From Octopus vulgaris (taxonomy: Eukaryota), in assembly GCA_951406725.2 (NCBI GenBank), contig OX597827.1, forward strand, positions 39,246,001-39,310,000: DNA of 64,000 bases. The letters are read 5' to 3'. Numbering within the stretch: position 1 is the stretch's first letter; the number at the start of each line of letters is the position of its first letter. The position numbers were made by a program, and so were the translations under genes. The notes beneath the pieces are model-generated. The model had not been told where the DNA came from, searched no databases, and was given only the letters and a program-made list of their open reading frames with translations. Below, one piece after another: positions 1-47,789 of the stretch.

Positions 1-1547
1 CTCTCTTGGACAATATTCTCAGAAGTAGGTATCGATTTAAATTTCTTCACATCAATACTTTTTGTACCAACATTTTGGTCTTTGGGTTTTCCATCATCAG
101 GTGTTTGGTCTTCAGTACTCAGAATATCAGCATCTTCAAGAGGATCTGACACAGTGTCTTTCGAAGATTCTAAGAAAGTCTTTGCAGGTTCTTCCACTTT
201 TGTTCTTACCTGAACTAAAGTGGGATCTTTCTCCTTCCAGTCATTATCCTCTTCAAGAGCTGAATATTCCAAGTCGTAATCTGATGGTTCAATTCTGACT
301 GATGTCACATCATCACCAACACTTTCTTGGACAATATTCTCAGAAGTAGATATTGATTTAAATTTCTTCACATCAATACTTTTTGTACCAACATTTTGGT
401 CTTTGGATTTTCCATCATCAGGAGTTTGGTCTTCAGTACTCAGAATATCAGCATCTTCAAGAGGATCTGACGCAGTGTCTTTCCAAGATTCTAAGAAAGT
501 CTTTTCAGGTTCTTCCACTTTTGTTCTTACCTGAACTAAAGTGGGATCTTTCTCCTTCCAGTCATTATCCTCTTCAAGAGCTGAATATTCCAAGACGTAA
601 TCTGATGGTTCAATTCTGAGTGATGTCACATCATCACCAACACTCTCTTGGACAATATTCTCAGAAGTAGGTATTGATTTCAATTTCTTCACATCAATAC
701 TTTTTGTACCAACATTTTGGTCTTTGGATTTTCCATCATCAGGAGTTTGGTCTTCAGTACTCAGAATATCAGCATCTTCAAGAGGATCTGACGCAGTGTC
801 TTTCCAAGATTCTATGAAAGTCTTTGCAGGTTCTTCCACTTTTGTTCTTACCTGAACTAAAGTGGGATCTTTCTCCTTCCAGTCATTATCCTCTTCAAGA
901 GCTGAATATTCCAAGTCGTAATCTGATGGTTCAATTATGACTGATGTCACATCATCACCAACACTCTCTTGGACAATATTCTCAGAAGTAGGTATTGATT
1001 TCAATTTCTTCACATCAATACTTTTTGTATCAACATTTTGGTCTTTGGATTTTCCATCATCAGGTGTTTGGTCTTCAGTACTCAGAATATCAGCATCTTC
1101 AAGAGGATCTGACACAGTGTCTTTCCAAGATTCCAAGAATGTCTCCACAGGTTCTTCATATTTATGTTTTACCTGAAATAATGTAGGGCCTTTTTCTTCC
1201 CAGTCATTATCCTCTTCAAGAGCTGAATATTCCAAGTTGTCTATTTGCACAGACATCACCTTAGAAACACCTACTTCCCTTATAACATTTTCAGAAGTGG
1301 GAGTACTAATGTCAGGAATGTTTGAATATATCACAGTATTTATGTTTTTTCCATCATTAGTGTTGTCATAGGTTGGTATTTCCACATCTCTTGTTAGAAT
1401 ATCAGCATCTTCAAGAGGATCTGATGCAGTGTCTTTCCAAGATTCCAAGAACGTCTGCACCGGCAATTGATGATATTCAACAACTTGTAGTTTGGACGGA
1501 TCTTTCTCTTCCCAGTCATTATCCTCTTCAAGAGCTGAATATTCAAG
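1..1547 (-). repeat. Coding tandem repeat, 321-bp (107-aa) unit: about 3.8 near-identical copies plus one diverged ~312-bp copy
   Basis: LEYSALEEDNDW begins at 272, 593, 914, 1235 (321 apart) and 1547. Unit: LEYSALEEDNDWKEKDPTLVQVRTKVEEPAKTFLESWKDTASDPLEDADILSTEDQTPDDGKSKDQNVGTKSIDVKKFKSIPTSENIVQESVGDDVTSVRIEPSDYD. Confidence 0.95.
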
Positions 1548-4094
1548 ATTCTTCTCATCTGTAGCTGCATCGTTTTTTCCATTTTCAGAAGAATCTAAAA
1601 GATTTTCATTCTTTAAAATTTCATGAGTATTTATTTCTCTATCTACAGAATGTACTGTTTCCCCAGAACTTTCAGGATCTTGGGACTCATCTCCATTCAT
1701 TAACAGCTGTGTCGTGATGTTGTTTATTTCACTGTGATGAATGCCAAGCAGTTCTTGTGTTCCTTGAGATGAGCAGTCGATAACTCCTGAAGTGATCTTA
1801 TCACTTTCAACTTTTGTAACCTGAGGATCTTGTCTTCTTTCAGATGTTTTTGTGTCTCCAACACCTTTGAAACTATCTTCTGATGAATAAAATTTTGACC
1901 ATATATAAAGATCTTTCCGATCTTCTTCAAGTGGTTCAGACACAGTGTATTTCCAATCAGTGCTATATTGATTTCTGTCGATCAATGATTTATAATCATC
2001 TGTGTTCTCATCTGTTTCATAAAATTTCCTCCAAATTTCATTGTCTCTGCTTATTTTCAAAGCCTTCTCTTCCCAATCCTTGTTGGATATTGGATTGTAA
2101 AACATTTTCCAAATGTCTTCATGCTCTATTTCATTTTCCAAAGGTTCAGATTCTGTAGAATCGTCTTTCAGTAAGTATGCCATGGTGTCATTATTGTCTT
2201 TACTTGGTTCTTTCAGAGTAAGACATGGCTTTTCATTCCAGTCATTATCCTCCTCAAGTGGAGAATAAAACTTTGTCCAAACCTCATTATATTCCGTATC
2301 TAAATTTGAAGTTACAGAATCTGAATGTGGTTGTACAGTTTGGTCAATGGGACTGGATCTTCCATCAAATCCAGTTGAAACACCCAAAGTAACTTCCTCT
2401 GAGTGTGATGGAAGCCTATTGCTTTCTGGTTCTGGTGATGCTTTTGTCTCTGGCTGGGTTAAACCAGCTTTGCTTGTCATAATGTCCTTGCTTATTGATG
2501 TCATTTTAGTTACAGGACATATGTCATATAATGTTTCGGTAACATATTGGTGTGGTTGTAGGGTTTGAGTTTCATCAAGATTAGAGGACACTTGGTAAGT
2601 TTTGTCCTCCAAATTAGTCCACTGAGGAATATTATCTGACTGATTTACTAAGATGGAACTAGTGGTGTCAGTCATTTTCATATCAGTTTTTTGTTCAACT
2701 GAATTATATTCAAAGTTGTTTAATTCACTCTCATCTTTAGATGTTTCTGTATGAGAGGAAACATTAGTGACCAAATCAGACCTGCTAAATTGGGCATCTA
2801 CAGTGTCTGAAGATTTGGTCTCTTCTGGCTTACCTGTAGATTGTAAAGAAGCTTCTTCAGCCTCTCCACTTGTGACAATTTCTTGGGTAGTTTTTTGTGT
2901 TCTGTCAGAGTCGAGTAGGCTAATGTTGGTATCAGCTTCAACAGGTATTAGCTTCTCAGAACTTTTCAGTTCTTCATATTTTTGTACGTTTGTGTCTCTT
3001 CTAGAAACAACATCTTTAGCTCCTAGCGAATTCAGTTTTTCACCTGTATATTCTAATTCATAATCTTCAGTTTCTTCTCCATCTAAACTTTGTATTTTTA
3101 GGGGTTGTTTTAAAATTGGGCTAACTGAAGATTCTTGAAAGGATAAAGGATCAGACTCTTTTGTGTTAGTGGCTTGTAATGTAGCTTGGTCCAAAAGAGA
3201 ACCATCCTTTATAACTAAACTAGACATTTCTTGACTAAACCTTATCTGGTCTCCTTGTAGGGAATCTAAGCCTGAAGATACGTCATCTCTTGAGACAGTT
3301 ATAGAACTTTCACAGATGTTAGTACTGTAATTGTCTTCAGAGACTTGAGTTACTCCTAAATCTAAAGCCCCACCACTGCCACTTTCAGGTTTTTCTACTC
3401 TAGTTACATCAGACTGGCTATGGGCAACATATTCTAAATCAGATTGATCTAAACTTTCATGGTCAAACTCATGTGAAGTTTCTGATATGGGGGTAGAAAT
3501 ACTAAGATCACCTGACATGAGGCCTGAATCAAACATCTCTGATGTGGAATAATCACTGCTAGGGGATATTTCTTCTCTACGATCTAAATACTTTAGCTTT
3601 GAGTTTTCATTCGCTGAAGGAGATTCTACAAGAGAATCGTTGTTAGTCACATGATCAACATTTAAGTCACTGGTAGCTTTGACCAGTCCTGCATCTACAT
3701 CACTGCAAATACCATTATAAAAAAAACCATTGCTTACTTCCTCAGCTTTGGAAGCAGTGTTGCCATCTGTGTCTTCACTGTACTCTGCCAAACCTGAAGT
3801 TTCGGAAGTTTTCTTTGTAAGTGCATTTGTTTCTTGAAGAGAGGTAATGTCTCCTGCCCCAGGCTGTTGAATCTCCACAGTTGGAGAATGTATATTGCTG
3901 AGGCGAGTTTGCATTTCACAAACGTCCTTTCCAGGGGCCGATTCTTCTTCATTGTATGCCCAAGCCCATGGAAAGTCATCAGCCCATCCTGTGTTAGCTG
4001 GCGGTAAAGAAATGGGAGTTTCTTCGGTTGGGGGAGATTTTAGGAATGGGTCTGTTAAAGATTCGGTGCTGCCAAAACCCTCACTATTTAGCAC
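1..4094 (-). CDS. Giant exon (at least 1364 codons, open to window edge) encoding an acidic S/T/E/D-rich tail; probable C-terminal region of the TDRKH-like gene
   Basis: Acceptor ccatttctttacag|GTG at 4095-4096. Frame reads VLNSEGFGSTESLTDPFLKSPPTEETPISLPPANTGWADDFPWAWAYNEEE...; no stop in the long stretches translated by hand, and the frame at 4094 matches the frame at position 3. Phase 0 fits the donor at 22112. Absent from the ORF track, consistent with no in-window stop. Linkage to upstream exons is inferred. Confidence 0.85.
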   Translation of the reverse strand, partial: MLNSEGFGSTESLTDPFLKSPPTEETPISLPPANTGWADDFPWAWAYNEEESAPGKDVCEMQTRLSNIHSPTVEIQQPGAGDITSLQETNALTKKTSETSGLAEYSEDTDGNTASKAEEVSNGFFYNGICSDVDAGLVKATSDLNVDHVTNNDSLVESPSANENSKLKYLDRREEISPSSDYSTSEMFDSGLMSGDLSISTPISETSHEFDHESLDQSDLEYVAHSQSDVTRVEKPESGSGGALDLGVTQVSEDNYSTNICESSITVSRDDVSSGLDSLQGDQIRFSQEMSSLVIKDGSLLDQATLQATNTKESDPLSFQESSVSPILKQPLKIQSLDGEETEDYELEYTGEKLNSLGAKDVVSRRDTNVQKYEELKSSEKLIPVEADTNISLLDSDRTQKTTQEIVTSGEAEEASLQSTGKPEETKSSDTVDAQFSRSDLVTNVSSHTETSKDESELNNFEYNSVEQKTDMKMTDTTSSILVNQSDNIPQWTNLEDKTYQVSSNLDETQTLQPHQYVTETLYDICPVTKMTSISKDIMTSKAGLTQPETKASPEPESNRLPSHSEEVTLGVSTGFDGRSSPIDQTVQPHSDSVTSNLDTEYNEVWTKFYSPLEEDNDWNEKPCLTLKEPSKDNNDTMAYLLKDDSTESEPLENEIEHEDIWKMFYNPISNKDWEEKALKISRDNEIWRKFYETDENTDDYKSLIDRNQYSTDWKYTVSEPLEEDRKDLYIWSKFYSSEDSFKGVGDTKTSERRQDPQVTKVESDKITSGVIDCSSQGTQELLGIHHSEINNITTQLLMNGDESQDPESSGETVHSVDREINTHEILKNENLLDSSENGKNDAATDEKNLEYSALEEDNDWEEKDPSKLQVVEYHQLPVQTFLESWKDTASDPLEDADILTRDVEIPTYDNTNDGKNINTVIYSNIPDISTPTSENVIREVGVSKVMSVQIDNLEYSALEEDNDWEEKGPTLFQVKHKYEEPVETFLESWKDTVSDPLEDADILSTEDQTPDDGKSKDQNVDTKSIDVKKLKSIPTSENIVQESVGDDVTSVIIEPSDYDLEYSALEEDNDWKEKDPTLVQVRTKVEEPAKTFIESWKDTASDPLEDADILSTEDQTPDDGKSKDQNVGTKSIDVKKLKSIPTSENIVQESVGDDVTSLRIEPSDYVLEYSALEEDNDWKEKDPTLVQVRTKVEEPEKTFLESWKDTASDPLEDADILSTEDQTPDDGKSKDQNVGTKSIDVKKFKSISTSENIVQESVGDDVTSVRIEPSDYDLEYSALEEDNDWKEKDPTLVQVRTKVEEPAKTFLESSKDTVSDPLEDADILSTEDQTPDDGKPKDQNVGTKSIDVKKFKSIPTSENIVQE

Positions 4095-5566
4095 CTGTAA
4101 AGAAATGGTACAAATATTAGAAAATAATAATTTCATACACAGACACAATTAAAAAAAAAAGAAAATTTGCAGGGAATAGGTAGGTTGGTAGGTAAAACAG
4201 TTTCAGAAAGAGAGCTAAGTTAATAGGGTGTTGGTTTACTGGATAACTGAAGGACTGGTGGCCTGTATCCTTATCACTGGTTTTAGGAAGTAATAAAACA
4301 GCATTTTCAATTGTTTAACCCCGGGTTTCCCTGAATGAGTAGACCTATGACCAAAAGCATTCCAACCATAACCATCCCACATATTTTTGTGTTTGTGGGA
4401 CTACACTGTTTAATGTGTCCTTTATAGTGTGTGAATTGAAGGGGATTTGGTTATTCACTCTTTCTAGCAGATTAAACAAGTAAAAAGAGAGGTTTAACTC
4501 ATTAGTTTAAGGGCTAAGCAGTCATATTCCATCTCTCGTGCTATATTTTATCAGTGGCCAATACACTTAGTTCCTATCAGTGGCTAAGATCTTAATGGTT
4601 TGTTCCATTAGCTTTTAATAAATAGGTACCATGGTTAGGTGCTGGGGTTATGCTTACAGCTTCAAAGTAGCAACGTTACAGCCTAAGTTGACTGGCATTT
4701 CAATGACTTCTAGTGTTGAGTTCAAATCCTACCACATGTACAGCTTAAAGAGATGTAACTGGAAGTTGTGGCATTCATACCTTCTGCAAGCTGGGACAAA
4801 TACTGCAAGGAGTTTTGTCCAGTACTCTAATGGTTCCATCAACCTATCACTGGATTAGTACCTTATTTTAAATTCCAAATCCAAAACGATGAAGAACAAA
4901 GGATTTGAACTCAGTACATAAACAGACTTAACTACTTTCGGGTAAGAGTATAAAAAAAAATTGCATCTCTCTGCCAAACCATGTTGAGTCAGTGTGGCAG
5001 GGTAGACTCATCAAATCAGTATGATCTCAAGCTCAAATTCACAGTCTCTACAATAGACTGTGATTGGGTGGAGAGAACATGTTGAGGCCTTTGTCTTGCA
5101 GTGGACAGAACATGGGCAATCCAATCCAGTCCAGTCCAGTCCAACCTACATAAACAGTCAGAATATTTGTCATTTTGACAGACACTTCAATGATCCTACC
5201 AATCCACTGCCATTAATAAAAATAATAACATAGAGGAAATGTTTAAAAAAAAAATGAAGGAAGAAGGTAAAAATCATTTTCTGATACACTCTTAGGAATT
5301 TCTTCTATAATAATGTCCTCAATGTACCCACTTAAGTACTCCGTTAAAGGTCAAATGGATAAGGACTAGTGGTAATCTACTTTCAGTTTCATTGTTGTGG
5401 AGTATTGAGCCTTGCATTTGAAATTATACAGGTTTAAAGATGCTGCTGTCGTTTTTAGCCTGACATCAACCCTGAACCAGCAGCCTAAACCTGAAAGCAT
5501 TTGAGCCTTGACCATCTGTATTTTTCCCTCAGAATTCATACATACATACATACATACATACATACA

Positions 5567-5597
<31 letters not shown>

Positions 5598-6555
5598 GAG
5601 TGTGTGTGTGTGTATGTGTGTTTGTGTTAGGTCACTCTTGAGTGCTACTGGTAACATGTAATCCACAACAGCCTGTAGGATGTCTGGGCCATCAGGAACT
5701 AAACTGGCAATATTACCACACTTGATTAGCAGGGTGGCTTTTTGGACACTGAGCAGGATAAAAATCAAGAGCTGTGAAAGGGGAGATGAACTGAGGAGGG
5801 TCAATGACCATCCAAGTACATAACACACACACACACACACTTAATCCAATGTATCCTTCCCATTTTAAGATAGTAGGGTGTGGTTTGAGGAAGCGCTATT
5901 TCTAGCAGGTTGAGTAATCACATAAAATAAATCCCTGTTGGTTTGTAGGTTTTAAGATCCTTTTACTTTTTAGCCCTTGATCAGTTCTAACCAAACAGAC
6001 CTATGGTCAAATGTGTTCCAGCCATGACAATCCTGACTTATTTACAGACTTAGTATATCTAGTGCAATAGAGTCCAATATGTCTTTTTTTTTAAGATGTA
6101 AGGCAGGGAGATTTGACTGCTGTTTTTAACCCACAGGTTTGTGAGAGAAGGGATTTCTCGTACCTCTTGGGATATTGTGCATCTTTCATCTTTCCCAACA
6201 GTATCCCTGCGACTCGATGACTTGCTCCATTCAGCATGGCCCATTTTCACTAGCTCTTCATTGATGTTAGTTGTCTAGAGGGTAAAAAAATATATATATA
6301 TATATATATATAAGTTAAATTAATATTACAAATAGAAGAATAGAAATACATATATATTATGTGGATACATACATGTAGACAAATATATATTCATAAAGTT
6401 AAAGATGTTGATTTTTATACAAGTAAATAAATCACACAAAATTGAAATTAATTCAAAACGAACAAAAATGTAACACACACACAAACACACCCATCCACAT
6501 ACATGTATACATATATGTATATATACATACAATGCATGCATACACATACACACAA

Positions 6556-6591
<36 letters not shown>

Positions 6592-6594
<3 letters not shown>

Positions 6595-7003
6595 TCTTTC
6601 ACTCTTTTACATGTTTCAGTCATTTGACCACGGCCATGCTGGAGCACCACCTTAATCGAGAAATCGACCCCAGGATTTATTCTTTGTAAGCCTAGTACTT
6701 ATTCTATTGATCTCTTTTGCTGAACCAGTGAGTTTTGGGGACATAAACACACCAACATCAGTTGTCAAGTGGTGCTGGGGGGACAAACACAGACACAAAG
6801 ACACACACACATAAATATATATACACATATATATACATGACAGGCTTCTTTCAGTTTCCATCTATCAAATTCACTCACAAGGTTTTGGTCAGCCTGAGGC
6901 TATAGCGGAAGGCACTTGCCCAAGGTGCAATTCAGTGGGACTGTACTCAGAACCATGTGGTTGAGAAGCAAGTTTTTTACCACACAGTCATATCTGTGCC
7001 TAT
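6592..7003 (-). mobile_element. tRNA-derived SINE, family A
   Basis: Reverse-complement match to the copies at 61765-62178 and 62780-63157, including the gtaaaagagt-type tail. Confidence 0.8.
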
Positions 7004-7096
7004 AGTATAAAGTTAACTTAAAATATTAAAAGATATATGAATAAAAAAGAATTGAAAATAGGAAAAATGTTACAAACAACCCAAAATATAAATATA

Positions 7097-8358
7097 TTGG
7101 GTTGGCAAGAAAGTAATTTTGTTTTTTGCAAAGAGTCTTTTTTCAATAATTTTTGTGAATGTTATGATTTTTTCCTTTTGACATTTGATAGCTGTTACTT
7201 TTAGCTTACTTTAGGAGCAAATTGCATGTAATTTTGTTTACAGCTGTTAGTTCAGTGACAATTTTAACATGGAATGCAAAAACAAACATTTTCACCATAT
7301 TTCGCTTTTTTATTTCTGTAAAGATAAGAAAGCTGCTGAGGCTCACAAAGAGATATGTGAAGTTTATAGTGTTGATTGCTTAACAGAATGCACATTTCAG
7401 AAATGGTTTAAAAAACCCTGTTCTAGACTCAAAGATGACCAATGTTCTGGTTGACCTACTGAAGTTGATGACTAATCAAAGCCATAATTGAATCTGATTG
7501 TCATATAACTGTGTGAGAAATTTCAGAGAGGTTAGATGTATCACATACAACAACTGAAAATCACTTAAAATGTCTTGGACTCATTAAGAAGCTTGATATG
7601 GGAGTTGCACATAAATTGAAAAAGATTCACTTAACACAACAAATCAATGTTTGTGAGATGTATTTCAAATGGAATGAAATCGACCTTTTTTGAAACAAAT
7701 CATCACTGGTGATGAAAAATGAATTGTCTACTATGACATCAATTGAAAACGATTATGGTCCAAGTATAATGAACCAGCACAAATCACATCAAAAGCTGAA
7801 CTGCATCAAAAAAAGGTTATGCTGTCAATTTGGTGGGATTACAAAGGTGCTGTGTAGTTTGAGCTGCTTTGAAGGAATGAAATGATCAATTCAGATGTTT
7901 ACTGTCAACAGCTAATGAAACTGGAGGAAGCAATCAAAGAAAAATGACTAGAATTGGTAAATCGTAGAGGAATCGTGTTCAACCATGACAACATTAGACC
8001 ACACACATCTTTGCTAACTTATGAAAAAGTACTGGAGCTTGGTTGGGAAGTGATGTCACATCCACCATATAGTCCTGACTTTGCACCATCAAATTACTAT
8101 TTATTTTGAAGTTTGCAAAATTCTTTGATGGTAAAACTTTCAATAATGATGACCTGAAATCACATTTGCTTCAGTTTTTGGCTGATTAGAACCAGAAGTT
8201 CTATGATTGTGGAATCATGAAGTTGCCAGAAATATGGCAAAGGGCCATCAAACAAAATGGAAACTATATAATTGATTAAAGTTCATTCTTTGTATGAAAA
8301 AAAACAACAAACTTTTATTTCACACTAAACAGCTGAAAATACTTTCTTGCCAATCCAG
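7097..8358 (+). mobile_element. Near full-length decayed mariner transposon (mellifera-like subfamily)
   Basis: TIRs ttgggttggcaagaaagt / actttcttgccaatccag flanked by TA. Relic from 7269 MECKNKHFHHISLFYFCKDKKAAEAHKEICEVY; motifs ITGDEK, HDNIRPH, HPPYSPDFAPSNY; many stops and frameshifts. Confidence 0.93.
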
Positions 8359-11162
8359 TATATATACGTAAATATAAAGTAAACCATTAATATATAAATA
8401 AACAAAATAAACAAGTTTTAAGAAACAATTTTGTGAAATGAAGATTTACCATAAAGAAAAAGTATTCTGTTATATAAAAGTCATGGTCAGTTCTGGACAT
8501 GATATCTGTGATAGTTTAAAAGACTATTTATGACTGAACATTTGTAAGTGACTGCCAAACTTGGATTTCTAGATGCTGGTAGGACATGGTCCAATGAAGA
8601 AACTTTAATGGGGTCATTGGATCTACTAGAAATAACAGCTAAATATCTCACAACTACAAGTCAAGCCTTATATGGTAAATGGAGCTCAGCCCAAATTTTC
8701 AACTCTGAATGTTCAGTTATTCGATCAACTAAACAACTGAGCTCATTAAATTAGCATGTAATTTGCTGAGTATTCCACAGACATATACTTTTTGGTCTGT
8801 CATGAGCTACAGGAGTCACACAGCCTGAGCTTAAACCAATTTCTGTAGCATATAAGAAAATGATTACAACTCTCCCGCTGCTGAATGGGATGCTGGTCCA
8901 TTGCTATTGTTGGAACCCATGTGCAGTTGTGTGGACTAGAGCAATGTGAAATGAGGTGTTTTGTTCAAGAACACAATACATCACCAGGTCTGGGAATTGA
9001 AACCATGATCATAAGATTGTGAGAGCAACATGATAATCACTAAACCATGCACCTTCACACAGACATGTGTACACTTAATGAAATTCTTGGGTGGAATCAC
9101 TGTGACACAATATGACAAGAGTAGACCATTCCGTGCCATGCTGAATCTCACTGAAAACTACATGAAGGGTACATGTGTCTGTGGAGTGCTCAGTCACTTG
9201 CATGTTAATTTCATGAGCAGGCTGTTCCTTTAATCAGATCAACTGGAACCCTCATTGTTGCAACTGATGGAGTGCTAGTTAAAAAAAAGGTACAATCCAT
9301 CTAACAGTCTTCTTTACAGTTTCTGTCCCGCCAGTTTTACTCTATGGTATGGGTTGACCTGAGACTATAGAAAATAAACTCTTTCCTAAGATGCCATGCA
9401 GTGCGATCGAAATCATAACCTCTTGATTGTGAAGTTGACTTTTTAACAGTTCAGACATACTATACCTACAATCAAAATCCTACAGTCTTAAAAAAACAAA
9501 AACATATTTCACAGTTACTGGTAGTTTCATCTCAGACAGGATTATCCAGACCAAGGATTCCCATACAGAATGAAACTGCTGGTCATTGTGAGCACTGAAT
9601 TTTCCAGCACTCCCAATAAAATTATTACATTACAATTGAATCAAAATGTTTGACTACCAGCAGCACTAGATGTAGCATCCTACCATCATCATCATCATCC
9701 TTTAACACCCTTGTTCCATACCAGCATATGTTGGATGATTGGACAAGATTCAACAGGTCCAAGAGACAATACAGAAAAAGGATGAGGGTGTTTGTAAGTC
9801 ACATACTCTAATAACACAACAAGCTATGAAAATAGTCCCTTACTATCACTTAATAGTTGGAAACCTTACACGTTTGCACCCCAAATTGATAACCCTAACT
9901 TAAGTAGAAGACCAGAAATATTTGGTGGAAGTAGAAGTTCATTATATCAACTCTAGTATTTGAGTGGTGCTCATTCTTATTGCTTTTGGAAGAATGAAGT
10001 TGACCCCACAAGGATTTAAACCCAGGACATAAGGTGCCATAATTAGATACCACAGACCATATTGTGTGATTCTGCCCATTCAGTATGAAGAAACAAGGAG
10101 AGTGTATTTTTAAGATATGTGATCTTGATAATATTGCTAGTTGCTTGGTTAGTCCAGATTACTCTGTAAGGAGCATAGGGCCAGTTTTCTGGTTTCTGTT
10201 GCTTATATATTCCTCCCTGGATGAGACACCAGTCCATCACAGGATTACTCATTTTTATCAGCTGAATGGACTTGAACAATGTGAAATGAAGTGTCTTGCT
10301 CAAGAACACAACACATCACTTAGTCCAGGAATCGAAACCACAATCTTATGATCACGAGTCCAACACCCTAACCACTAAGAGCTAGTCTCTTACTGTCGCA
10401 TAATTGTTGGGAGCCTAAATGTTTGTTCTTTGAATGATATGAAGAAATAAAGAAGGAATATTAGTAAGTCACATGATCTGATAATAATACAGCAGCCCTT
10501 TCAAATGGTTGATCAGTTGTTGTTAGTTAAATGTTGGAACCTGTTGGTTTCAATACCTAGCACTGTCACAGATATGTTTTTTTTTTATCCCTAGAACTGG
10601 CTATACCTGTACAATAACAAAGAAAGAAAGAAACAAGCAACCACCACCACCACCACCACCAACAACAACAACTTTTAAGATAACAGCAACATGGACAAGG
10701 ACAACACTGAGGATAGCAGCAACAAGAAAAATGTCAATGTAAACAACAATAACAATGACATTAATGACAACAACAACAATGACAACATCAAGACAAAGGT
10801 TACAAGCCAGTAAAGGACTTGCTACAGAGTTGCTTGACATACTAAAACTGGCAGCCAAATAGCCCTCAAATCATAACCTACCATCTTAAGAAAGGAAAGG
10901 ATATTGGACAATGTAACTCTAACATAGTCCAAAACAGACAGTTTTGTCATGGTTGGAATGCTTTCAATCATAGCCTGTTTAGTCAGGGCTAACTAACATG
11001 GGGCTAAGGAATAGCAATGGTTATGACAAGAACAAGAACAATAACAACAGCATCAAGGGTAGCAGTGACTCAATCAGGACTAGGCAACATCGACAACATC
11101 ACCTTTTCAACAAAGATACCACCACCACCACCACCACCACCACCACCACCACCACCACCACC

Positions 11163-12230: not shown

Positions 12231-12560
12231 GTGAAGGTGCATGGCTCAGTGGTTAGAGCATTGAGCTTATGCTCATGAGGTTGTGAGTTTGATTCCCGGA
12301 CCAGGCTGTGTGTCGTGTTCTTGAGCAAGACACTTTATTTCACATTGCTCCAGTTCACTCAGCTGTAGAAATGAGTTGTGACGTCACTGGTACCAAACTG
12401 TATCGGCCTTTGCTTTTCCCTTGGATAACAATGGTGGTGTGGAGAGGGGGTGGGCTGGTGTGCATGGGCAACTGCTGGTCTTCTATAAACAACCTTGCCT
12501 GGACTTGTGTCTTGGAGGGTAACTTTCTAGGTACAATCCCATGGTCATTCATGACTGAAG
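12231..12560 (+). mobile_element. tRNA-derived SINE, family C
   Basis: A box tggctcagtggttagagc and B-box-like gagtttgattcc; homologous to 49061-49395 and 59241-59576. Confidence 0.8.
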
Positions 12561-14445: not shown

Positions 14446-14499
14446 CTTGGCTGCAGCCCGTTTTGTGTAGGCTCTCAGCCACAAATTACACCAGGTCAC
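14446..14499 (-). CDS. Candidate 54-nt frame-preserving micro-exon (VTWCNLWLRAYTKRAAAK)
   Basis: ccttccttcacag|GTG...AAG|gtagg; phase 0-0, open only in the required frame; lies between the last Tudor exon and the giant exon. Confidence 0.5.
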
Positions 14500-16797: not shown

Positions 16798-18270
16798 AAT
16801 CTACCTCTCTCTTTATATATAATGCCTACAACCTACTAACTTATCTACCTATCTATCAACGTATCAGTCTAGCTAATTAATTAACTAAACTCAGGCTAGT
16901 TCACATTATACATCAGTGTATTTATTAAATCTAAACAGAGATATTGATAAAGAGAATATAATAAGTTAATACAAACTCCACCTACGAGACTTTTTTTATG
17001 TTCTTTAGACAAGTAACATGTGACTGCGTAGATTATTTTTTATATATATGATTATCTGTATGTATAAATAGCATGCAATTAATTTATGATTAATAGAATT
17101 CATTTTCACACACACACACACCTTTATATATAATATGCAATAAATTTATAATTAAGATAGGATACTAGAGATAATTTTCTATTTTCTCATGATGACTAAT
17201 TACTCTCAGAGCGACACTACTTGCTAATGGTACCTATTTACAGTTAAGTGGATTGAGCTTTTGAAAAGCAATGTGTTCTTAGCCATTGATGCAATATCTC
17301 AGATCTCTGCAGATTTTTTTTTCTCTGTTTGTTCAACATCCTTTTAACTTGGCGAGGTAGACCACTCAAACATAAACAGAACCAACCCATTAAAAATATA
17401 TTAAAAAGAGGAAATAATTTTATCTTTTTTTTAAAATATTAATTCAAACAAAATACTAGTTTCATTTGGATTTTAAAAAAAATATTGTTTTCTACTTTTA
17501 CATTCAGTAGCAAATTCAAGAGTAACTATGATGCATTTAACAACAACAAATAATGCAACAAATTGACCAACAATATGATATTATTAAACATTAAAATCAC
17601 TAATTTGAGACAGAAAAGAACAACAGGCTCATTGACAAGATTCAAACTGTATATCTATCCCTTACTGGTTTGAATTCTGCCAGAGGGACCATTTCTCTAT
17701 TTTTTTCTCAAATTGGTTCTTATAATGTCTAAAGCCATCCACATAAAAATCTTAGTAATTAATTTAAAGTGATGATATATCGAATGTGGACTGAATATGC
17801 AATTGTGGAAAATTTGTCCTAATGTAATTCTTTCAATTGAAACAATGGGGAAGCAAGTTCAAACTGTGGGGGAGTATATTGTTACCCTCTATACTCAAAT
17901 AAGTTGCAATTTTTTTTACTACAAAAAAAAAAAAAACCAAAAGAAAGAAAACTTGCATGTGGCTTATATAGTAAATCATAATCAGAGCTTGAAATTTGAA
18001 GTATACATGTGTGCCCCACCCCCCAGCAAACGATTGATCTGTAGAGTGGGTTGGTCATGTCAGTACACAGTCTATATGACTCAGTATTGTAAGCAAGTAT
18101 ATGTTGATGGTATCTTGCATGAAAGTAAAAACAACTGTTTAAGCACAATTGGATTCTGCTGCAAAACAACCATGCTTACTTTTCCCAAATTTGTGACTTT
18201 GCCAATATCAATGTTAAAGTATTTTATAGGATTTGCATACTATATATATATATACATCATCATCCTCATC

Positions 18271-18600
18271 GTTTAATGTCCGTTTTCCATGCTAGCATGG
18301 GCTAGATGGTTCGACCGGGGTCTTGGAAGCCAGGAGGCTGCACCAGGCTTCAGTCTGATCTAGCAGTGTTTCTTCTACAGCTGGATGCCCTTCCTAACGT
18401 CAACCACTCCGTGAGTGTAGTGGGTGCTTTTTACGTGCCACCAGCACAGGGGCCAGAGGAAGCTGGCAACAGCCATGATCAGTTGGTGCTTTTTACGTGC
18501 CACTGGCACAGAAGCTAGTCAAAGTGGCCCTTGGCATCGGCCATGTTTGGATAGTGCTTTTTACATGACACCAGCACGGGTATCACAACTACAATTTCCA
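18271..18600 (+). mobile_element. Interspersed SINE-like repeat, family B
   Basis: tttaatgtccgttttccatgctagcatggg...ctggatgcccttcctaa; other copies near 13300, 22726, 27361, 42617, 56230, 62330. Confidence 0.75.
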
Positions 18601-18601
18601 T

Positions 18602-18632
<31 letters not shown>

Positions 18633-22111: not shown

Positions 22112-22266
22112 CTGGGGTCCATCATAGTCTATGAGCTGGAGACAAGGCACCAAGCCATGAGAGGTAGGTTGATATCTGACAATTTCTCCGGATATGATCT
22201 TCGATTGGTTCATACACACCATATTTTCAAATGCGTTACATGCACTTCGAGTCCAGTCATGGTCAT
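22112..22266 (-). CDS. TDRKH: TDRKH-like coding exon 9, SN-like part of the extended Tudor domain
   Basis: aactcaag|AT...CAG|gtaaa; DDHDWTRSACNAFENMVCMNQSKIISGEIVRYQPTSHGLVPCLQLIDYDGPQ; W-x3-A-x2-AF and P-x3-L-x-D patterns typical of extended Tudor domains; phase 1-0. Confidence 0.88.
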
Positions 22267-24013: not shown

Positions 24014-24078
24014 CTTTAGGTTTTATATTAGCAAGGTAACACTCAACGGCTTGGTATGGAAGACTCAGATATTCCTCT
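24014..24078 (-). CDS. TDRKH: TDRKH-like coding exon 8
   Basis: ttatttccag|A...G|gtagg; EEYLSLPYQAVECYLANIKPK, the conserved F/Y-L-x-L-P-x-Q-A-x-E-C-x-L-A motif after the Tudor core; phase 2-1. Confidence 0.93.
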
Positions 24079-25208: not shown

Positions 25209-25381
25209 CTTAAACGGCATACATTGTCTTTTGGCACTTCTTCATTGTAACCATAATCAACACAGAAGACTTTATAACTATTGTTTAGCACAGCGGTGAC
25301 ACGAGCCCGGTACCATTGTGACTGGTTAGAGAGGCATACAGCCACAACATCGTCAACAGCAACTTCATGACATTGGTACGT
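25209..25381 (-). CDS. TDRKH: TDRKH-like coding exon 7, Tudor core
   Basis: tttaacag|ACG...AG|gtaag; TYQCHEVAVDDVVAVCLSNQSQWYRARVTAVLNNSYKVFCVDYGYNEEVPKDNVCRLR with WYRARV and VDYG hallmarks; phase 0-2. Confidence 0.95.
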
Positions 25382-25959: not shown

Positions 25960-26165
25960 TTGAAAATGCCTTGAATCTGAGTAAAATTCATCAATATTTT
26001 TCTGTAGGTTCACTAATTTTGGTAAATTTTCATTACGAATGTGGGCCCAGAAATGACCAGGGCTTGTCACAGACACAACCATCAGTTCCAGAAGATCTGT
26101 TGGAGCATCTTTGGTTAAATGGGACTGCGGAACTGTATGTTCTCCTGAATCTCTAGCAGCTGCAT
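25960..26165 (-). CDS. TDRKH: TDRKH-like coding exon 6, start of the extended Tudor domain
   Basis: tcttcaag|AT...CAA|gtaagt; ...APTDLLELMVVSVTSPGHFWAHIRNENLPKLVNLQKNIDEFYSDSRHFQ (SPxHFW motif); phase 1-0. Confidence 0.92.
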
Positions 26166-28663: not shown

Positions 28664-28778
28664 TTTTTGTGTGAGCCACTCTATGCATGTGGTGCGCTGC
28701 AGTGTCACTGCTACTACACTGTGACAAAGGTTCTTCATGGAATGTGAGGTTCTTGTCGACTACGTCGTTAATTAGTTT
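28664..28778 (-). CDS. TDRKH: TDRKH-like coding exon 5, end of KH2 helix and linker
   Basis: ttcctttcatttcag|AAA...A|gtaagt; KLINDVVDKNLTFHEEPLSQCSSSDTAAHHMHRVAHTK; phase 0-1, exactly what is needed to join exon 4 to exon 6. Confidence 0.88.
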
Positions 28779-30267: not shown

Positions 30268-30407
30268 CTTGGCATGTTCTATTTGTTCTCTTGAACCTTC
30301 TATAGAGACAAACTGCATATGTTTTGCATCTCTATTTTCTGTTGTGTCTATGAGAACTGTAGCACCACTCACTCGGTTAATATATCGTACAGTTTGATAA
30401 TTGTTAC
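30268..30407 (-). CDS. TDRKH: TDRKH-like coding exon 4, KH2
   Basis: tattccag|GT...AAG|gtaagt; GNNYQTVRYINRVSGATVLIDTTENRDAKHMQFVSIEGSREQIEHAK; phase 1-0. Confidence 0.92.
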
Positions 30408-30948: not shown

Positions 30949-31150
30949 CAATAAGTGAAATAGTTGATGAACTTGGAATATACATGTCTTCTGAAGTGAC
31001 TGTTGAAATATCAGAAATGATTTGCTGGATTCTGAGTTCAGCCTGCTGGGTTGCTTCTAAGCTTCCTCGTATACATAGTGTTTGATCTTCTGTTGAGGAT
31101 GTGTCACCATCTTGTTTGAGATCTATTTGGACATTACAGCTATTTTGTAA
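30949..31150 (-). CDS. TDRKH: TDRKH-like coding exon 3, rest of KH1 and start of KH2
   Basis: tttgtttcag|TTA...G|gtaagt; LQNSCNVQIDLKQDGDTSSTEDQTLCIRGSLEATQQAELRIQQIISDISTVTSEDMYIPSSSTISLI; phase 0-1. Confidence 0.92.
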
Positions 31151-32955: not shown

Positions 32956-33077
32956 TCGCTGTAAACTTGATCTGTTTGTGCCAATGATGGCTGATGTGGC
33001 ATAAGAAGGAATTTGGACTTCTGTGACTGTCATGGAAGATTTTGATTTTGAGCTTTTAGAGTCTTCTTCTTCGTTAT
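32956..33077 (-). CDS. TDRKH: TDRKH-like coding exon 2, start of KH1
   Basis: gctttttcag|AT...CGA|gtaag; DNEEEDSKSSKSKSSMTVTEVQIPSYATSAIIGTNRSSLQR; phase 1-0. Confidence 0.92.
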
Positions 33078-37429: not shown

Positions 37430-40111
37430 AAATAGACCATAACTTAGGAAAGTACCACATTTAATAGCATATAAGATGTACTTTTTACAAAAAATAGTCT
37501 AAAAAAAATCATTCTGGGTCCTCTGAAGTTTGGCCTATATTATATGTTTTAATGTTCCAAAAAACCATTTTTCTGAATATGCATTGTTGAAATTGGGTTG
37601 TGTCTAATATACCTGTATGTCTTTTATGCTGTCAAATATAGTATTCAATAAATTATAGTAGCAGAGTGTTTATATGTACATGATGCCTTTGTTGATGCAA
37701 TTACAGCTCTATATTTGTTGTCTTTCTCCAACTGGGAAGGACGTTTACAGTTGTTTCAAATGAAATTTATTCACATGTGTCACTCAGTACATCATTCTCA
37801 ACTAAATATATGCATACACAGAAGGAATATAAAAAGCAAAGATGGTTCCAGTAAGATTTGAATTCAGAAAGTAAAGCAACATAGCTAAATATCAAAATGC
37901 ATTTTGTTTGCCTCTCTAGCAAGCTTGCAAATTCGTTAATCACCTGATAATTATAATAGTAAGAATTCCTAACATAAACATAAAGTCACAAATAAAAGGA
38001 GAAGAGCTCACGTAATTAAATGAACCATAGTAATTAACTGGTACTTACATGTTGACCTTGGAAATATGAAAGGCAAAGTTTGCCTTGGTGGTATTTAGAC
38101 TTAGAAAGTAGATGAATGGGCATTTTTTAATTCAGTGCTCTATAAATTATTCCATCCTTCTGATTATGGTGATGATGATGATGATGATGATGGTAAAAAT
38201 AATGATAATAAAACCTTCTTACTAAAGGCACAATGCCTGAAATTTGAGGTGAGGGCACTAGTTGATTACACTGACCTCAGTGTTTCACTGGTATTTAATT
38301 TAATTTAATTAATTTAATTTATTGAAAGGATGAACGGTAAAGTCAACCTTGCTGGGATTTGAACTCAGAATGTAACGACAGATGATATGTTGCTAAGCAT
38401 TTTGCCCAGCATGCTAACAGTTCTGCCAGTTCATCGCCTTAATAATAATGATAATAATATGAAAATTACAACTGTTGTTTCTAATTTAGGCACAAGGACA
38501 GCAGTTTTGAGGAGAAGGGGTTAGTTGTTACCATCAACCCCAGTACTTGACTGGTACTTTATTTTATCAAACCCCACAGGGATGAAAGGCAAACTAAACT
38601 TAGAGAGCAGGAAGAAATATTGGTTTCAAATAAGGCAGTTTTAGGGGAGGGGTAAGTCAATTACATCAACCCCAGTGCACAACTGGTATTTATTTTATTG
38701 ATCCCAAAAGGATAAAAGGCAAAATCAAGATCAATAGAATTTGAACTGAGAACATAAAGATGGACAAAATACCAGTAAGCATTTTGGCCATTTGCTAATG
38801 ATACTGCCACCTTGCTACTTTAAAGTAGAAATATTCTTTTCTGCTCTAGGCACAAGACCCAAAATTTTGGGAAGGGGTGGGGGCAATCGATTAGATCGAC
38901 CCCAGTGTGCAACTGGTACTCAATTTATTAACCCCAAAAGAATGAAAGGCAAAGTTGACCTCAGTGATTCTGCCAGTTCACCAATAATGATAATAAAAGA
39001 TTCCTTACATGAAGTGGAAACAAGTAGCAATCAGTCAATTTAGCCAACTGTTTCTCTACCTGATCCCACTCCATTTATCTGAAGTTTTTGCATCGTATCT
39101 TAATTAGAAATCATCATCATCATCATCAACATCCTCATCATCATCATCAACATAACCAGTAACATCATCACTACATGAAAGTGTTTCATTAACTTTTAAC
39201 ATGAGAAAACAACAGAATTTTGTCCAAGACTGCAGAAGGAAGAGACATTTTGTTTAGGAAAATACAGTCACATCATAGTAACAGTTGCATGCCATGCTGA
39301 ACAAATTTGGAAGTATTGTTAATTTCTTTTTTTAGTACAACATCAGCAATAACAACAGAAACAACAACAACAACTACTCATGGGCAGCATCAGCAGCAAG
39401 ATCATTAAACAGATTTAAACCAATGATTAATTAATTAATCAAACCAAAAACTAACCTGCAATCAATTTCTGACCAATGTTTAGTCTGTGGCTCAGAAATC
39501 TTGCTGACCTTTTCCCTCGACGGAGCAAATGTCGTCCCACTGGAACAAAGAATTGGCTGCAGGCAATGGACTACTATGTTTGCAAAGAAATTGGCGGAAC
39601 AAACCGCTGAGTAAAGAAATCAAACAAACAAGCCAACAAACCAACCAGCCAACTGACCAAGCAACGAATTAACCAATCAAAATATAGCAAAACAATTTTG
39701 TTTAATTTTAGAAAATAATTTTTGCTTTTGTTTTAATATAAGATGATGGTTAACCGTTTCATGTCTAGAATAACTGGACACTATAACACTATAATTAATT
39801 GTTACACTGTAGTTAATTAGCAAGTCTTTTAGGATCTTAAAGATTGATTGGACTTTTAATCTCATCTTTTAAGTATTTCAAACAGGTGTCATTTTCCCTA
39901 GTGGCTGCAGTTTTTACTAGGGAGATAATTATTTCTTCATAATATTTGGTGGGATTAGAAATCTGAATTTGAAATTAAGGAATTATTAATCTAAAAGATG
40001 CAAAATCTTCTAGTTGGTGATAATTTTGTATAATATTATTTCATCCTTTTTACACTAAATCAATGATTATCAGTAGTGTAAATGGTCACTTGTGGTAGTA
40101 AATTGACTGAG

Positions 40112-47695: not shown

Positions 47696-47789
47696 CATCT
47701 GTGTGCCGGAGTAACAAATAAAGCAAGACAAATGTGGTTGGAAGGGCAACAAAAAGAGCGAGTTTTCCTGTGATTGTTATGTCAAACAT
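47696..47789 (-). CDS. TDRKH: TDRKH-like first coding exon, N-terminal hydrophobic anchor (whole exon 47696-47937 with 5' UTR)
   Basis: ATG in acaaccATG context with an in-frame TAA 9 nt upstream; MFDITITGKLALFVALPTTFVLLYLLLRHTD; donor G|gtaagt phase 1; acceptor ttttcag at 47938-47939. TDRKH/Papi proteins have an N-terminal mitochondrial TM anchor. Confidence 0.87.

Follow-up and report, generated by a model that had tools for sequence, protein, structure and literature searches.

A 107-residue coding tandem array in Octopus vulgaris, probably part of a giant disordered tail on a TDRKH-like protein

The 64,000-nt stretch of Octopus vulgaris DNA analyzed here (assembly GCA_951406725.2, contig OX597827.1, positions 39,246,001–39,310,000; hereafter the window) opens on a minus-strand tandem array of 321-nt units, each coding for 107 residues. 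The exon that carries this array is in phase with 12 exons coding for a transmembrane (TM) segment, two KH domains and a Tudor domain, and thus the array is likely part of a giant, acidic and disordered tail (Table 1). Our preferred explanation, for which we claim somewhat more than even confidence, is a giant disordered tail for multivalent docking on a derived TDRKH/Papi-like protein, the long form of which is predicted. A preceding sequence-only reading of the same DNA had missed that the array belongs to an exon starting at 4094 and to a gene reaching 47789.

A TDRKH-like host gene with a giant exon

HMMER over 1.84 billion representatives yielded just three proteins: P0003 (6,301 residues), near-identical to the window; P0004 (626 residues); and P0002 (2,849 residues), which is 26% identical to P0003. 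In the first 851 residues of exon 13, P0003 differs from the window at a single position, which points to the same or a very close species. In P0004, from another organism, the Tudor exons are continued by the first 120 residues that the giant exon encodes, and in P0003 the Tudor part leads into the entire tail. The exon chain was built by mapping P0004 onto the window, where it falls into 12 minus-strand exons between 47789 and 6164. Each of the 12 introns has GT-AG ends, and the reading frame continues without a stop into exon 13, entered in phase 0 after ~507 residues; the only non-unique splice sites are the donor of exon 6 and the acceptor of exon 7.

The Kyte-Doolittle mean over 19 residues reaches 2.09 from residue 9 of exon 1 and stays at or below 1.05 elsewhere in the chain or the tails. 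In Pfam, P0004 matches TUDOR (3e-25) and, in two stretches, KH_1 (1.5e-17), and window exons 3–6 match these KH stretches at 55–60%. The six best PDB sequence matches of P0004 are all TDRKH/Papi Tudor domains, the top matches of exon 8 are TDRKH, and Pfam and the PDB sequence search indicate a single extended Tudor domain closest to TDRKH/Papi. Neither KH domain has a GxxG loop (IIGTNR and LIGNNY in the window, VIGTNR and LIGKNS in P0004). The Tudor cage keeps WY, the Asp and the Tyr of DYG, and carries Cys at TDRKH F388/BmPAPI Y338 and Tyr at TDRKH D393/BmPAPI D343 (TDRKH positions counted from D390/F391, BmPAPI positions placed by spacing). P0004 carries the same changes in KH loops and Tudor cage as the window gene. 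Judged from its sequence, the host gene is a derived TDRKH-like gene, and we do not file it as a canonical TDRKH/Papi member. An identity as AKAP1 was set aside, as domain layout and PDB matches point elsewhere. The P0003 model also includes two exons that P0004 does not (19922–19785 and 15823–15770, minus strand); these, like its skipping of exon 12, are possibly alternative exons or prediction errors.

Exon 13 is free of stops for at least 4,092 nt, and the open frame spans from 4148 to the window edge and beyond. The ~850 non-repetitive codons upstream of the array are open in the frame of the array, the chance of which is ~1e-27. From the exon 13 acceptor P0003 runs on for 6,062 residues, and its part beyond the window may comprise more than one exon. 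The start of exon 13 is 82% identical to P0004 and 59% to P0002 (145 residues aligned). Its first ~135 residues (4094–3690) are much better conserved than the rest and carry DPF and WADDF motifs. For this start there was no match in Pfam and no usable one in the ESM Atlas, and its AlphaFold model has no fold (predicted local distance difference test, pLDDT, 50.4; predicted template modelling score, pTM, 0.11). Beyond the window, at ~5000–6301, P0003 holds several poly-Lys/Arg tracts; its last 300 residues are net positive, and the array is acidic.

Table 1. Features of the array, the giant exon and the TDRKH-like exon chain in the window
Feature	Position	Strand	Description
Unit 1 (U1)	1541–1230	minus	104 residues; motifs A and B intact, linker diverged
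Unit 2 (U2)	1229–909	minus	107 residues; mosaic, 5' third of old type, rest of young type
Unit 3 (U3)	908–588	minus	107 residues; young type
Unit 4 (U4)	587–267	minus	107 residues; young type
Unit 5 (U5)	266–3	minus	88 residues, cut by window edge; Trp of motif B replaced by Ser
Relic FYSPLEEDNDWNEK	~2279–2229	minus	older relic, at the position of the fused C and A motif in the next row
Relic, fused C and A motif WTKFYSPLEEDNDWNEK	2229–2279	minus	phospho-FFAT score 3.0 (borderline); counterpart in P0002
Relic B motif WKYTVSEPLEED	1955–1920	minus	older relic
Three more C-type motifs and relic B motif	1881–2111	minus	WKMFYNP, WRKFYET, WSKFYSS
Exon 1	47696–47789	minus	start ATG and predicted N-terminal TM anchor; 30/30 residues as in P0004; donor GTAAGT
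Exon 2	39456–39539	minus	basic juxtamembrane segment; 82% identity to P0004; AG/GT boundaries
Exon 3	32956–33077	minus	start of KH1; loop IIGTNR, without GxxG
Exon 4	30949–31150	minus	remainder of KH1 and start of KH2
Exon 5	30268–30407	minus	KH2; loop over the exon 4/5 junction LIGNNY, without GxxG
Exon 6	28664–28778	minus	end of KH2 and linker; several donor choices preserve the frame
Exon 7	25960–26165	minus	start of extended Tudor; Pfam TUDOR E=0.0055; acceptor not unique
Exon 8	25209–25381	minus	Tudor core (WYRA ... FCVDYGYN); Pfam TUDOR E=9e-11; two cage positions altered
Exon 9	24014–24078	minus	extended Tudor
Exon 10	22112–22266	minus	extended Tudor
Exon 11	14446–14499	minus	84% to P0004; 19/19 to P0003
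Exon 12	6164–6274	minus	last before exon 13, ends in phase 0; in P0004, skipped by the P0003 model
Giant exon 13	1–4094	minus	acceptor tttctttacag/GTG; open for 1,364 codons, as far as the window edge
Conserved start of exon 13	3690–4094	minus	~135 residues; SLTDPFLK, WADDFPWAWAYNEEES, DVCEMQ, FYNGICSDVD; predicted disordered
Possible internal splice donor	3732–3740	minus	GAA/GTAAGC; P0004 match ends there; weak

Units of the array, their turnover and selection

Tandem Repeats Finder reports for positions 1–1237 a period of 321, 3.9 copies, 95% matches and 0% indels; unit boundaries were anchored on YSALEEDNDW, read on the minus strand. At the nucleotide level U3, U4 and U5 are mutually 97.0–97.8% identical and U2 is 90.5–91.6% identical to these three, and U1 has 9 nt less than the other units and keeps the frame. 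Over 1–1547 a single frame of six is free of stops, the other five holding 10, 15, 28, 31 and 69. The near-identical in-frame units that the sequence-only reading had placed at the window start, its diverged unit at ~1236–1547 and its older relics at 1900–2290 are thus all present. The gradient of divergence that it described is seen in so far as identity is lowest in the relics, increases through U1 and U2 and is highest in U3–U5, but the change takes the form of a step within U2, whose mismatches to U3 number 21 in the first 96 nt and 6 in the other 225 nt, with a boundary near 1134. A boundary as sharp as this is, on sequence grounds, as would be expected for crossover or conversion. Likewise, the units do repeat YSALEEDNDW and WKDTxSDPLED, yet in the WKDT motif of U5 TGG has become TCG (Trp to Ser), so that not all young copies retain the motif. 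The young units carry a consensus splice donor, CAG/GTAAGA, at 853, 532 and 211 (minus strand), in phase 0 (Gln-Val-Arg codons), which is not in U1 or U2; use of these donors might remove units from some isoforms, or the donors may be silent.

P0003 holds 22 units from residue 1091 to ~3440, followed by ~2,860 non-repetitive residues. With U4 of the window, its units 1–11 share 49, 95, 104, 86, 103, 105, 101, 103, 102, 102 and 95 of 107 residues and its units 12–22 share 61, 87, 70, 79, 102, 103, 86, 53, 29, 84 and 55; the array is homogeneous at units 3–10 and 16–17 and diverged at both ends and in the middle, and identity to U4 drops toward the far end (Spearman rho -0.67, units 3–22). Given this block pattern, the polarised gradient is explained as an effect of the window edge on the step inside U2. 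An expansion that proceeds from one end and leaves its youngest copies farthest downstream, as the sequence-only reading had it, would fit the rise of identity within the window, but it is contradicted by the two homogeneous blocks of P0003, diverged at their ends and in between, if the order of units in P0003 is right, as well as by the abruptness of the step; we hold it to be very improbable.

Units 3, 4 and 5 of the window are nearest to P0003 units 10, 6 and 8, respectively. Unit 3 and P0003 disagree at 7 of 107 residues, the flank at 1 of 851 (p=1e-6). This excess divergence, together with the altered nearest units, suggests that units have been reshuffled between the window and P0003. 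From the sequence comparison, recent turnover fits reshuffled units or differences in copy number, and assembly differences could mimic it. That the array as such is an assembly artefact is extremely improbable: its unit order does differ between the window and P0003, and near-identical 321-nt units assemble poorly, but the units differ from one another at 2–3% of sites, a second record (P0003) has the array and a distant protein has the same modules, so that an artefact is conceivable for copy number and order only. The diverged unit 1 (1541–1230) likewise departs from P0003 unit 1 at 4 of 104 residues, where the unique flank does so at 1 of 851 (p=0.0006). A WQDT variant common to units 1 and 22 of P0003 hints at conversion between distant units. 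High turnover is described as typical of disordered repeats (PMC5100051).

The ratio of non-synonymous to synonymous substitution rates (dN/dS) is 0.38 between U1 and U2 over the first 55 codons (Fisher p=0.014), and 0.36 between U2 and U4 (p=0.013), and on these sequence comparisons purifying selection on the older units is supported; between U2 and U3 the ratio is 0.47. Among U3–U5, 9 non-synonymous and 3 synonymous changes give a ratio of 0.81 (p=0.73), i.e., near neutral. No frameshifts occur among the young units, for which the chance is 0.30–0.45 under the assumed indel rate, or 0.02–0.07 with U2 added. Thus, of the proposal that the units are coding and under selection for frame, the coding part stands and dN/dS bears out selection in the older pairs, but the youngest units do not show it and the absence of frameshifts is weak evidence.

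Docking motifs and competing explanations

Three motifs are found in P0002, namely A (YSxLE[ED]xxW), B ([KE]TFxExWK[ED]TxSDPLE) and C (WxxFY[ST]P), arranged in repeats of its own of 155 and 547 residues. Being common to this distant relative, the motifs are, to judge from sequence, old; the word young, applied to the array before, fits the 107-residue unit but not the motifs, which a relative at 26% identity has in common. The distance from the Trp of A to the Trp of B is 25 residues in 21 of 22 P0003 modules and 24–25 in 14 of 17 P0002 modules, and a spacing of 24–26 is kept across both proteins while the linkers differ, linker columns matching in 0–4 of 17 P0002 copies. Unforced residues before the Trp of B match in P0002 as well (F 16/17, T 13/17, K 12/17). 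When 13 distinct P0002 modules are made into a profile, it detects 21 sites in P0003, another 5 in the window protein and not one in five control proteins; searching in the opposite direction recovers 15 sites in P0002. A tree built on 34 distinct modules groups them by species (2 label changes vs. 10.6 in shuffles), which, like the mosaic structure of U2, speaks for concerted evolution. The relic region aligns to P0002 with a score of 243 (shuffle maximum 73); the relic at 2279–2229 fuses C and A (WTKFYSPLEEDNDW) in both species, which suggests that A and C descend from one motif.

The array is acidic (D+E 26–28%, net charge ~-0.15 to -0.2 per residue), and the AlphaFold model of the unit, based on 5 sequences only, contains no helix or strand element (pLDDT 55.5, pTM 0.10); composition and this shallow model suggest that the unit is disordered. 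Pfam gave nothing meaningful for exon 13, the 107-residue unit or P0002. With two units as query, the ESM Atlas returned one match (0.75) and the PDB sequence search chance-level hits only (LARP7, E=0.064; Rev1 C-terminal domain, E=0.6). A word-index search recovered P0002 among longer proteins and no relative among 7,857 near-length candidates. Motif B at 588–1229 (ETFLESWKDTVSDPLED) resembles the start of the Rev1 C-terminal domain at chance level (E ~0.6), which is at most a hint that it forms a short helix. Known short motifs considered and rejected were LC8 KxTQT, as the Q position varies (A, V, K, Q, E), TRAF6 PxExxAc, as its P is kept in only 11 of 17 P0002 copies, and the p53-type FxxxWxxL, as Thr stands at the Leu position.

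Motif C has the same FY[ST]P core as STARD3's phospho-FFAT motif (QFYSPPE). Sites were scored with the matrix of Table EV4 in PMC7705450, with the calculator-sheet thresholds for SCORE4 and a score below 3 as a pass; the criterion as given there is F/Y at position 2, S/T at position 4 and acidic flanks. A functional motif would further be phosphorylated at position 4 and bound by VAP or MOSPD2. Scores below 3 were obtained for 9 of 11 copies of motif C in P0002 and 4 of 9 in P0003 (STARD3 reference 2.5); matrix scores in both proteins equal or better that of STARD3. After removal of a duplicated block, 6 distinct sites remain in P0002, whereas shuffles give 1.4 (P=0.003). The context comprises one predicted N-terminal TM segment and the disorder to which composition and unit model point. 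From this sequence likeness it is possible, though we think it unlikely on balance, that motif C is a phospho-FFAT motif binding VAP on the endoplasmic reticulum (ER), with the tail tethering mitochondria to the ER.

In the preferred explanation of a docking tail, the long form would be made and a short form of 626 residues (P0004) may also exist via the internal donor; a short and a long isoform are the simplest reading. Like mouse TDRKH and BmPAPI, the protein would be held in the outer mitochondrial membrane by its N-terminal helix, and from this single anchor the tail would extend on the predicted cytosolic face of mitochondria, its short docking motifs lined up one after another for multivalent binding. 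Motifs A and B may form one bipartite docking module of ~45 residues for some partner protein, and motif C, if a phospho-FFAT, would bind VAP on the ER and make of the tail a long mitochondria-ER tether or spacer. The 107-residue unit may have been multiplied and homogenised through unequal crossover and gene conversion, in which case selection would preserve motifs and frame while single copies drift. The most far-reaching version, which we consider doubtful, is a scaffold of PIWI-interacting RNA (piRNA) trimming that would have been repurposed in a cephalopod-type lineage, with its RNA-binding loops and part of its PIWI cage lost and a tail as long as 6,000 residues added, in which many phospho-FFATs tether mitochondria to the ER, the A+B module is one not described before and copy number is tuned by recombination in each lineage.

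Several observations weigh against the docking tail. P0002, P0003 and P0004 are all predicted proteins and the long form is a prediction; P0003 looks like a gene model, as it starts within the Tudor part, has two added exons and skips exon 12, P0002 starts at the exon 13 start without the Tudor part, and P0004 ends at 626 residues with its last 11–12 residues not found in the window. The mitochondrial targeting assumed above is carried over from homologues only. None of the 4 window copies of motif C scores below 3 (3.0, 3.5, 7.5, 8.0), and the array motifs A (5–5.5) and B (6.5–8) fail the phospho-FFAT score in 5/5 window copies each. P0003 has 6 sites below 3 against a shuffle mean of 2.2 and a maximum of 6, an enrichment that is not clear. 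Moreover, the score is passed by ~10% of human proteins according to PMC7705450 (2,079/20,373), and by human TDRKH at a site aligning within the Tudor domain. Conservation counts for W, T and S are circular, since the search pattern for B fixes those columns, and the module tree is built on 53 columns, with support of 84/80 for the array clade. Finally, the young units are near neutral and one of the three youngest (U5) is without the Trp of motif B.

Some of these points also favor the view, to us unlikely but of some weight, that the main product is the ~626-residue short form made via the internal donor, the repeat being a separate gene or a rare read-through. Indeed, the P0004 match stops exactly at GAA/GTAAGC (3738) and ends 12 residues later, P0002 begins without Tudor, known TDRKH/Papi proteins have 560–629 residues and, as weak evidence, no long orthologue was found among 7,998 candidates of 1,097–3,130 residues, a search that gave 4 other Tudor proteins, two of which (P0005 and P0006) are both without the TM-KH-KH layout. 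On the other hand, P0004 itself has the exon start spliced to the Tudor exons, this start and the repeats share an open frame in all three of the window, P0003 and P0002, and the open frame and the conservation with P0002 continue beyond the donor at 3738 (FYNGICSDVD; score 73, shuffle maximum 57); the donor is itself weak evidence, as GTAAG occurs 5 times in exon 13 against 2.1 expected. The near neutrality of the young units and the Trp lost from U5 would also suit a tail serving as an acidic spacer or condensate former, for which length, charge and aromatics matter rather than motifs and copy number drifts neutrally; P0003 units 4 and 18 carry in-frame deletions, and animal disordered repeats are described as having raised indel rates (PMC5100051). 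This we regard as rather improbable, because motifs and Trp spacing are kept at 26% identity while linkers are not, and dN/dS is 0.36–0.38 in the older comparisons.

Two further explanations start from motif A and assign it to known classes. The LC3-interacting region (LIR) has a [WFY]xx[LIV] core with acidic neighbours, and motif A, which we take to resemble the LIR of FUNDC1, would then turn the protein into an ATG8 receptor with many copies of the motif, serving mitophagy or the turnover of nuage by autophagy. A YxxL/V/I core is present in 22/22 A motifs of P0003 and 14/15 of P0002, partly forced by the pattern, and an acidic tract follows downstream; however, such a core is very frequent by chance, an acid precedes the Tyr in only 7/15 P0002 copies (19/22 in P0003), Gly or Pro lies inside several cores, and motif B and the fixed spacing are left unexplained, so we give this little credence. 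Less probable still is that motif A ends, with EDxxW[DE], in a W-acidic motif for kinesin light chain (Trp followed by Asp/Glu) or in an acidic motif of the Arp2/3 type, through which mitochondria would be coupled to motors or actin: D/E follows the Trp in 14/15 A motifs of P0002, but in only 7/22 of P0003 and 2/6 of the window, and the most amplified version has Lys.

Known systems and surrounding sequence

The TDRKH/Papi family helps piRNA trimming on mitochondria. In the accounts of mouse TDRKH and BmPAPI an N-terminal segment anchors the protein in the outer membrane of mitochondria, at which PIWI and PNLDC1 dock onto it, and the Tudor cage for PIWI arginines comprises F308, Y315, Y338, Y341 and D343 in BmPAPI and D390/F391 in mouse (PMC6411938, PMC3854531, bioRxiv 10.1101/786731); loss of GxxG is noted there in KH1 only, in zebrafish and C. 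elegans (PMC3854531). With the TDRKH/TDRD2/Papi proteins of mouse, Bombyx (BmPAPI) and Drosophila (Papi) the window gene shares TM segment, two KH domains and extended Tudor; it differs in having no GxxG in both KH loops, Cys and Tyr at two cage residues, and a predicted tail of up to ~6,000 residues, for which the proteins of 560–629 residues described in these sources offer no counterpart. No description of a giant TDRKH was found in the literature searched, which omits most subscription journals.

In giant ankyrins (vertebrate gAnkB/gAnkG, Drosophila Ank2 long forms) a huge exon likewise adds a long unstructured tandem-repeat segment to a folded protein that is conserved; according to PMC7401806 the giant exon of Drosophila Ank2 lies at the 3' end and repeat number scales binding. 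The gAnkB repeats have 12 residues and are basic (isoelectric point 10.6), whereas the window units have 107 residues and are strongly acidic. The host protein here is a membrane-anchored TM-KH-KH-Tudor protein, and no relation to ankyrins was found. With the phospho-FFAT tethers STARD3, the mitochondrial PTPIP51/RMDN3 and MIGA2 the window protein may be compared for its predicted membrane anchor and its predicted disordered, presumably cytosolic arm; the differences here are 4–9 copies, a tail of several thousand residues and an invariant Trp that precedes the Phe by three residues, and motifs A and B, those amplified in the window, fail the score. AHNAK and Ki-67 have small N-terminal domain exons followed by a huge exon of ~100–130-residue units under concerted evolution; their host domains differ, and the Pfam, PDB and Atlas searches gave no sequence match to them.

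A form up to 10 times longer, altered RNA and PIWI signatures and a module amplified separately in two lineages would point to the repurposing of a piRNA factor, which may be compared to the giant exons of ankyrins. The defined 45-residue module and the phospho-FFAT candidate are amenable to direct peptide tests. Coding arrays under concerted evolution are in themselves ordinary, and the long TDRKH-like form remains a prediction.

Among the other open reading frames of the window, 93 of 94 scanned have no Pfam match, and Rfam gave 0 matches in the window. Intron 11 contains, at ~7095–8360 on the plus strand, a decayed transposon of mariner type, which has terminal inverted repeats and retains a remnant of the Mos1 helix-turn-helix (Pfam HTH_48, E=9.5e-14). 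The window DNA is rich in microsatellites, with ~36% GC, and holds several families of interspersed repeats of 250–420 nt (110 pairwise matches at 70–89% identity), examples being those at 6592–7009, 18255–18602 and 12231–12560, with copies up to 63158.

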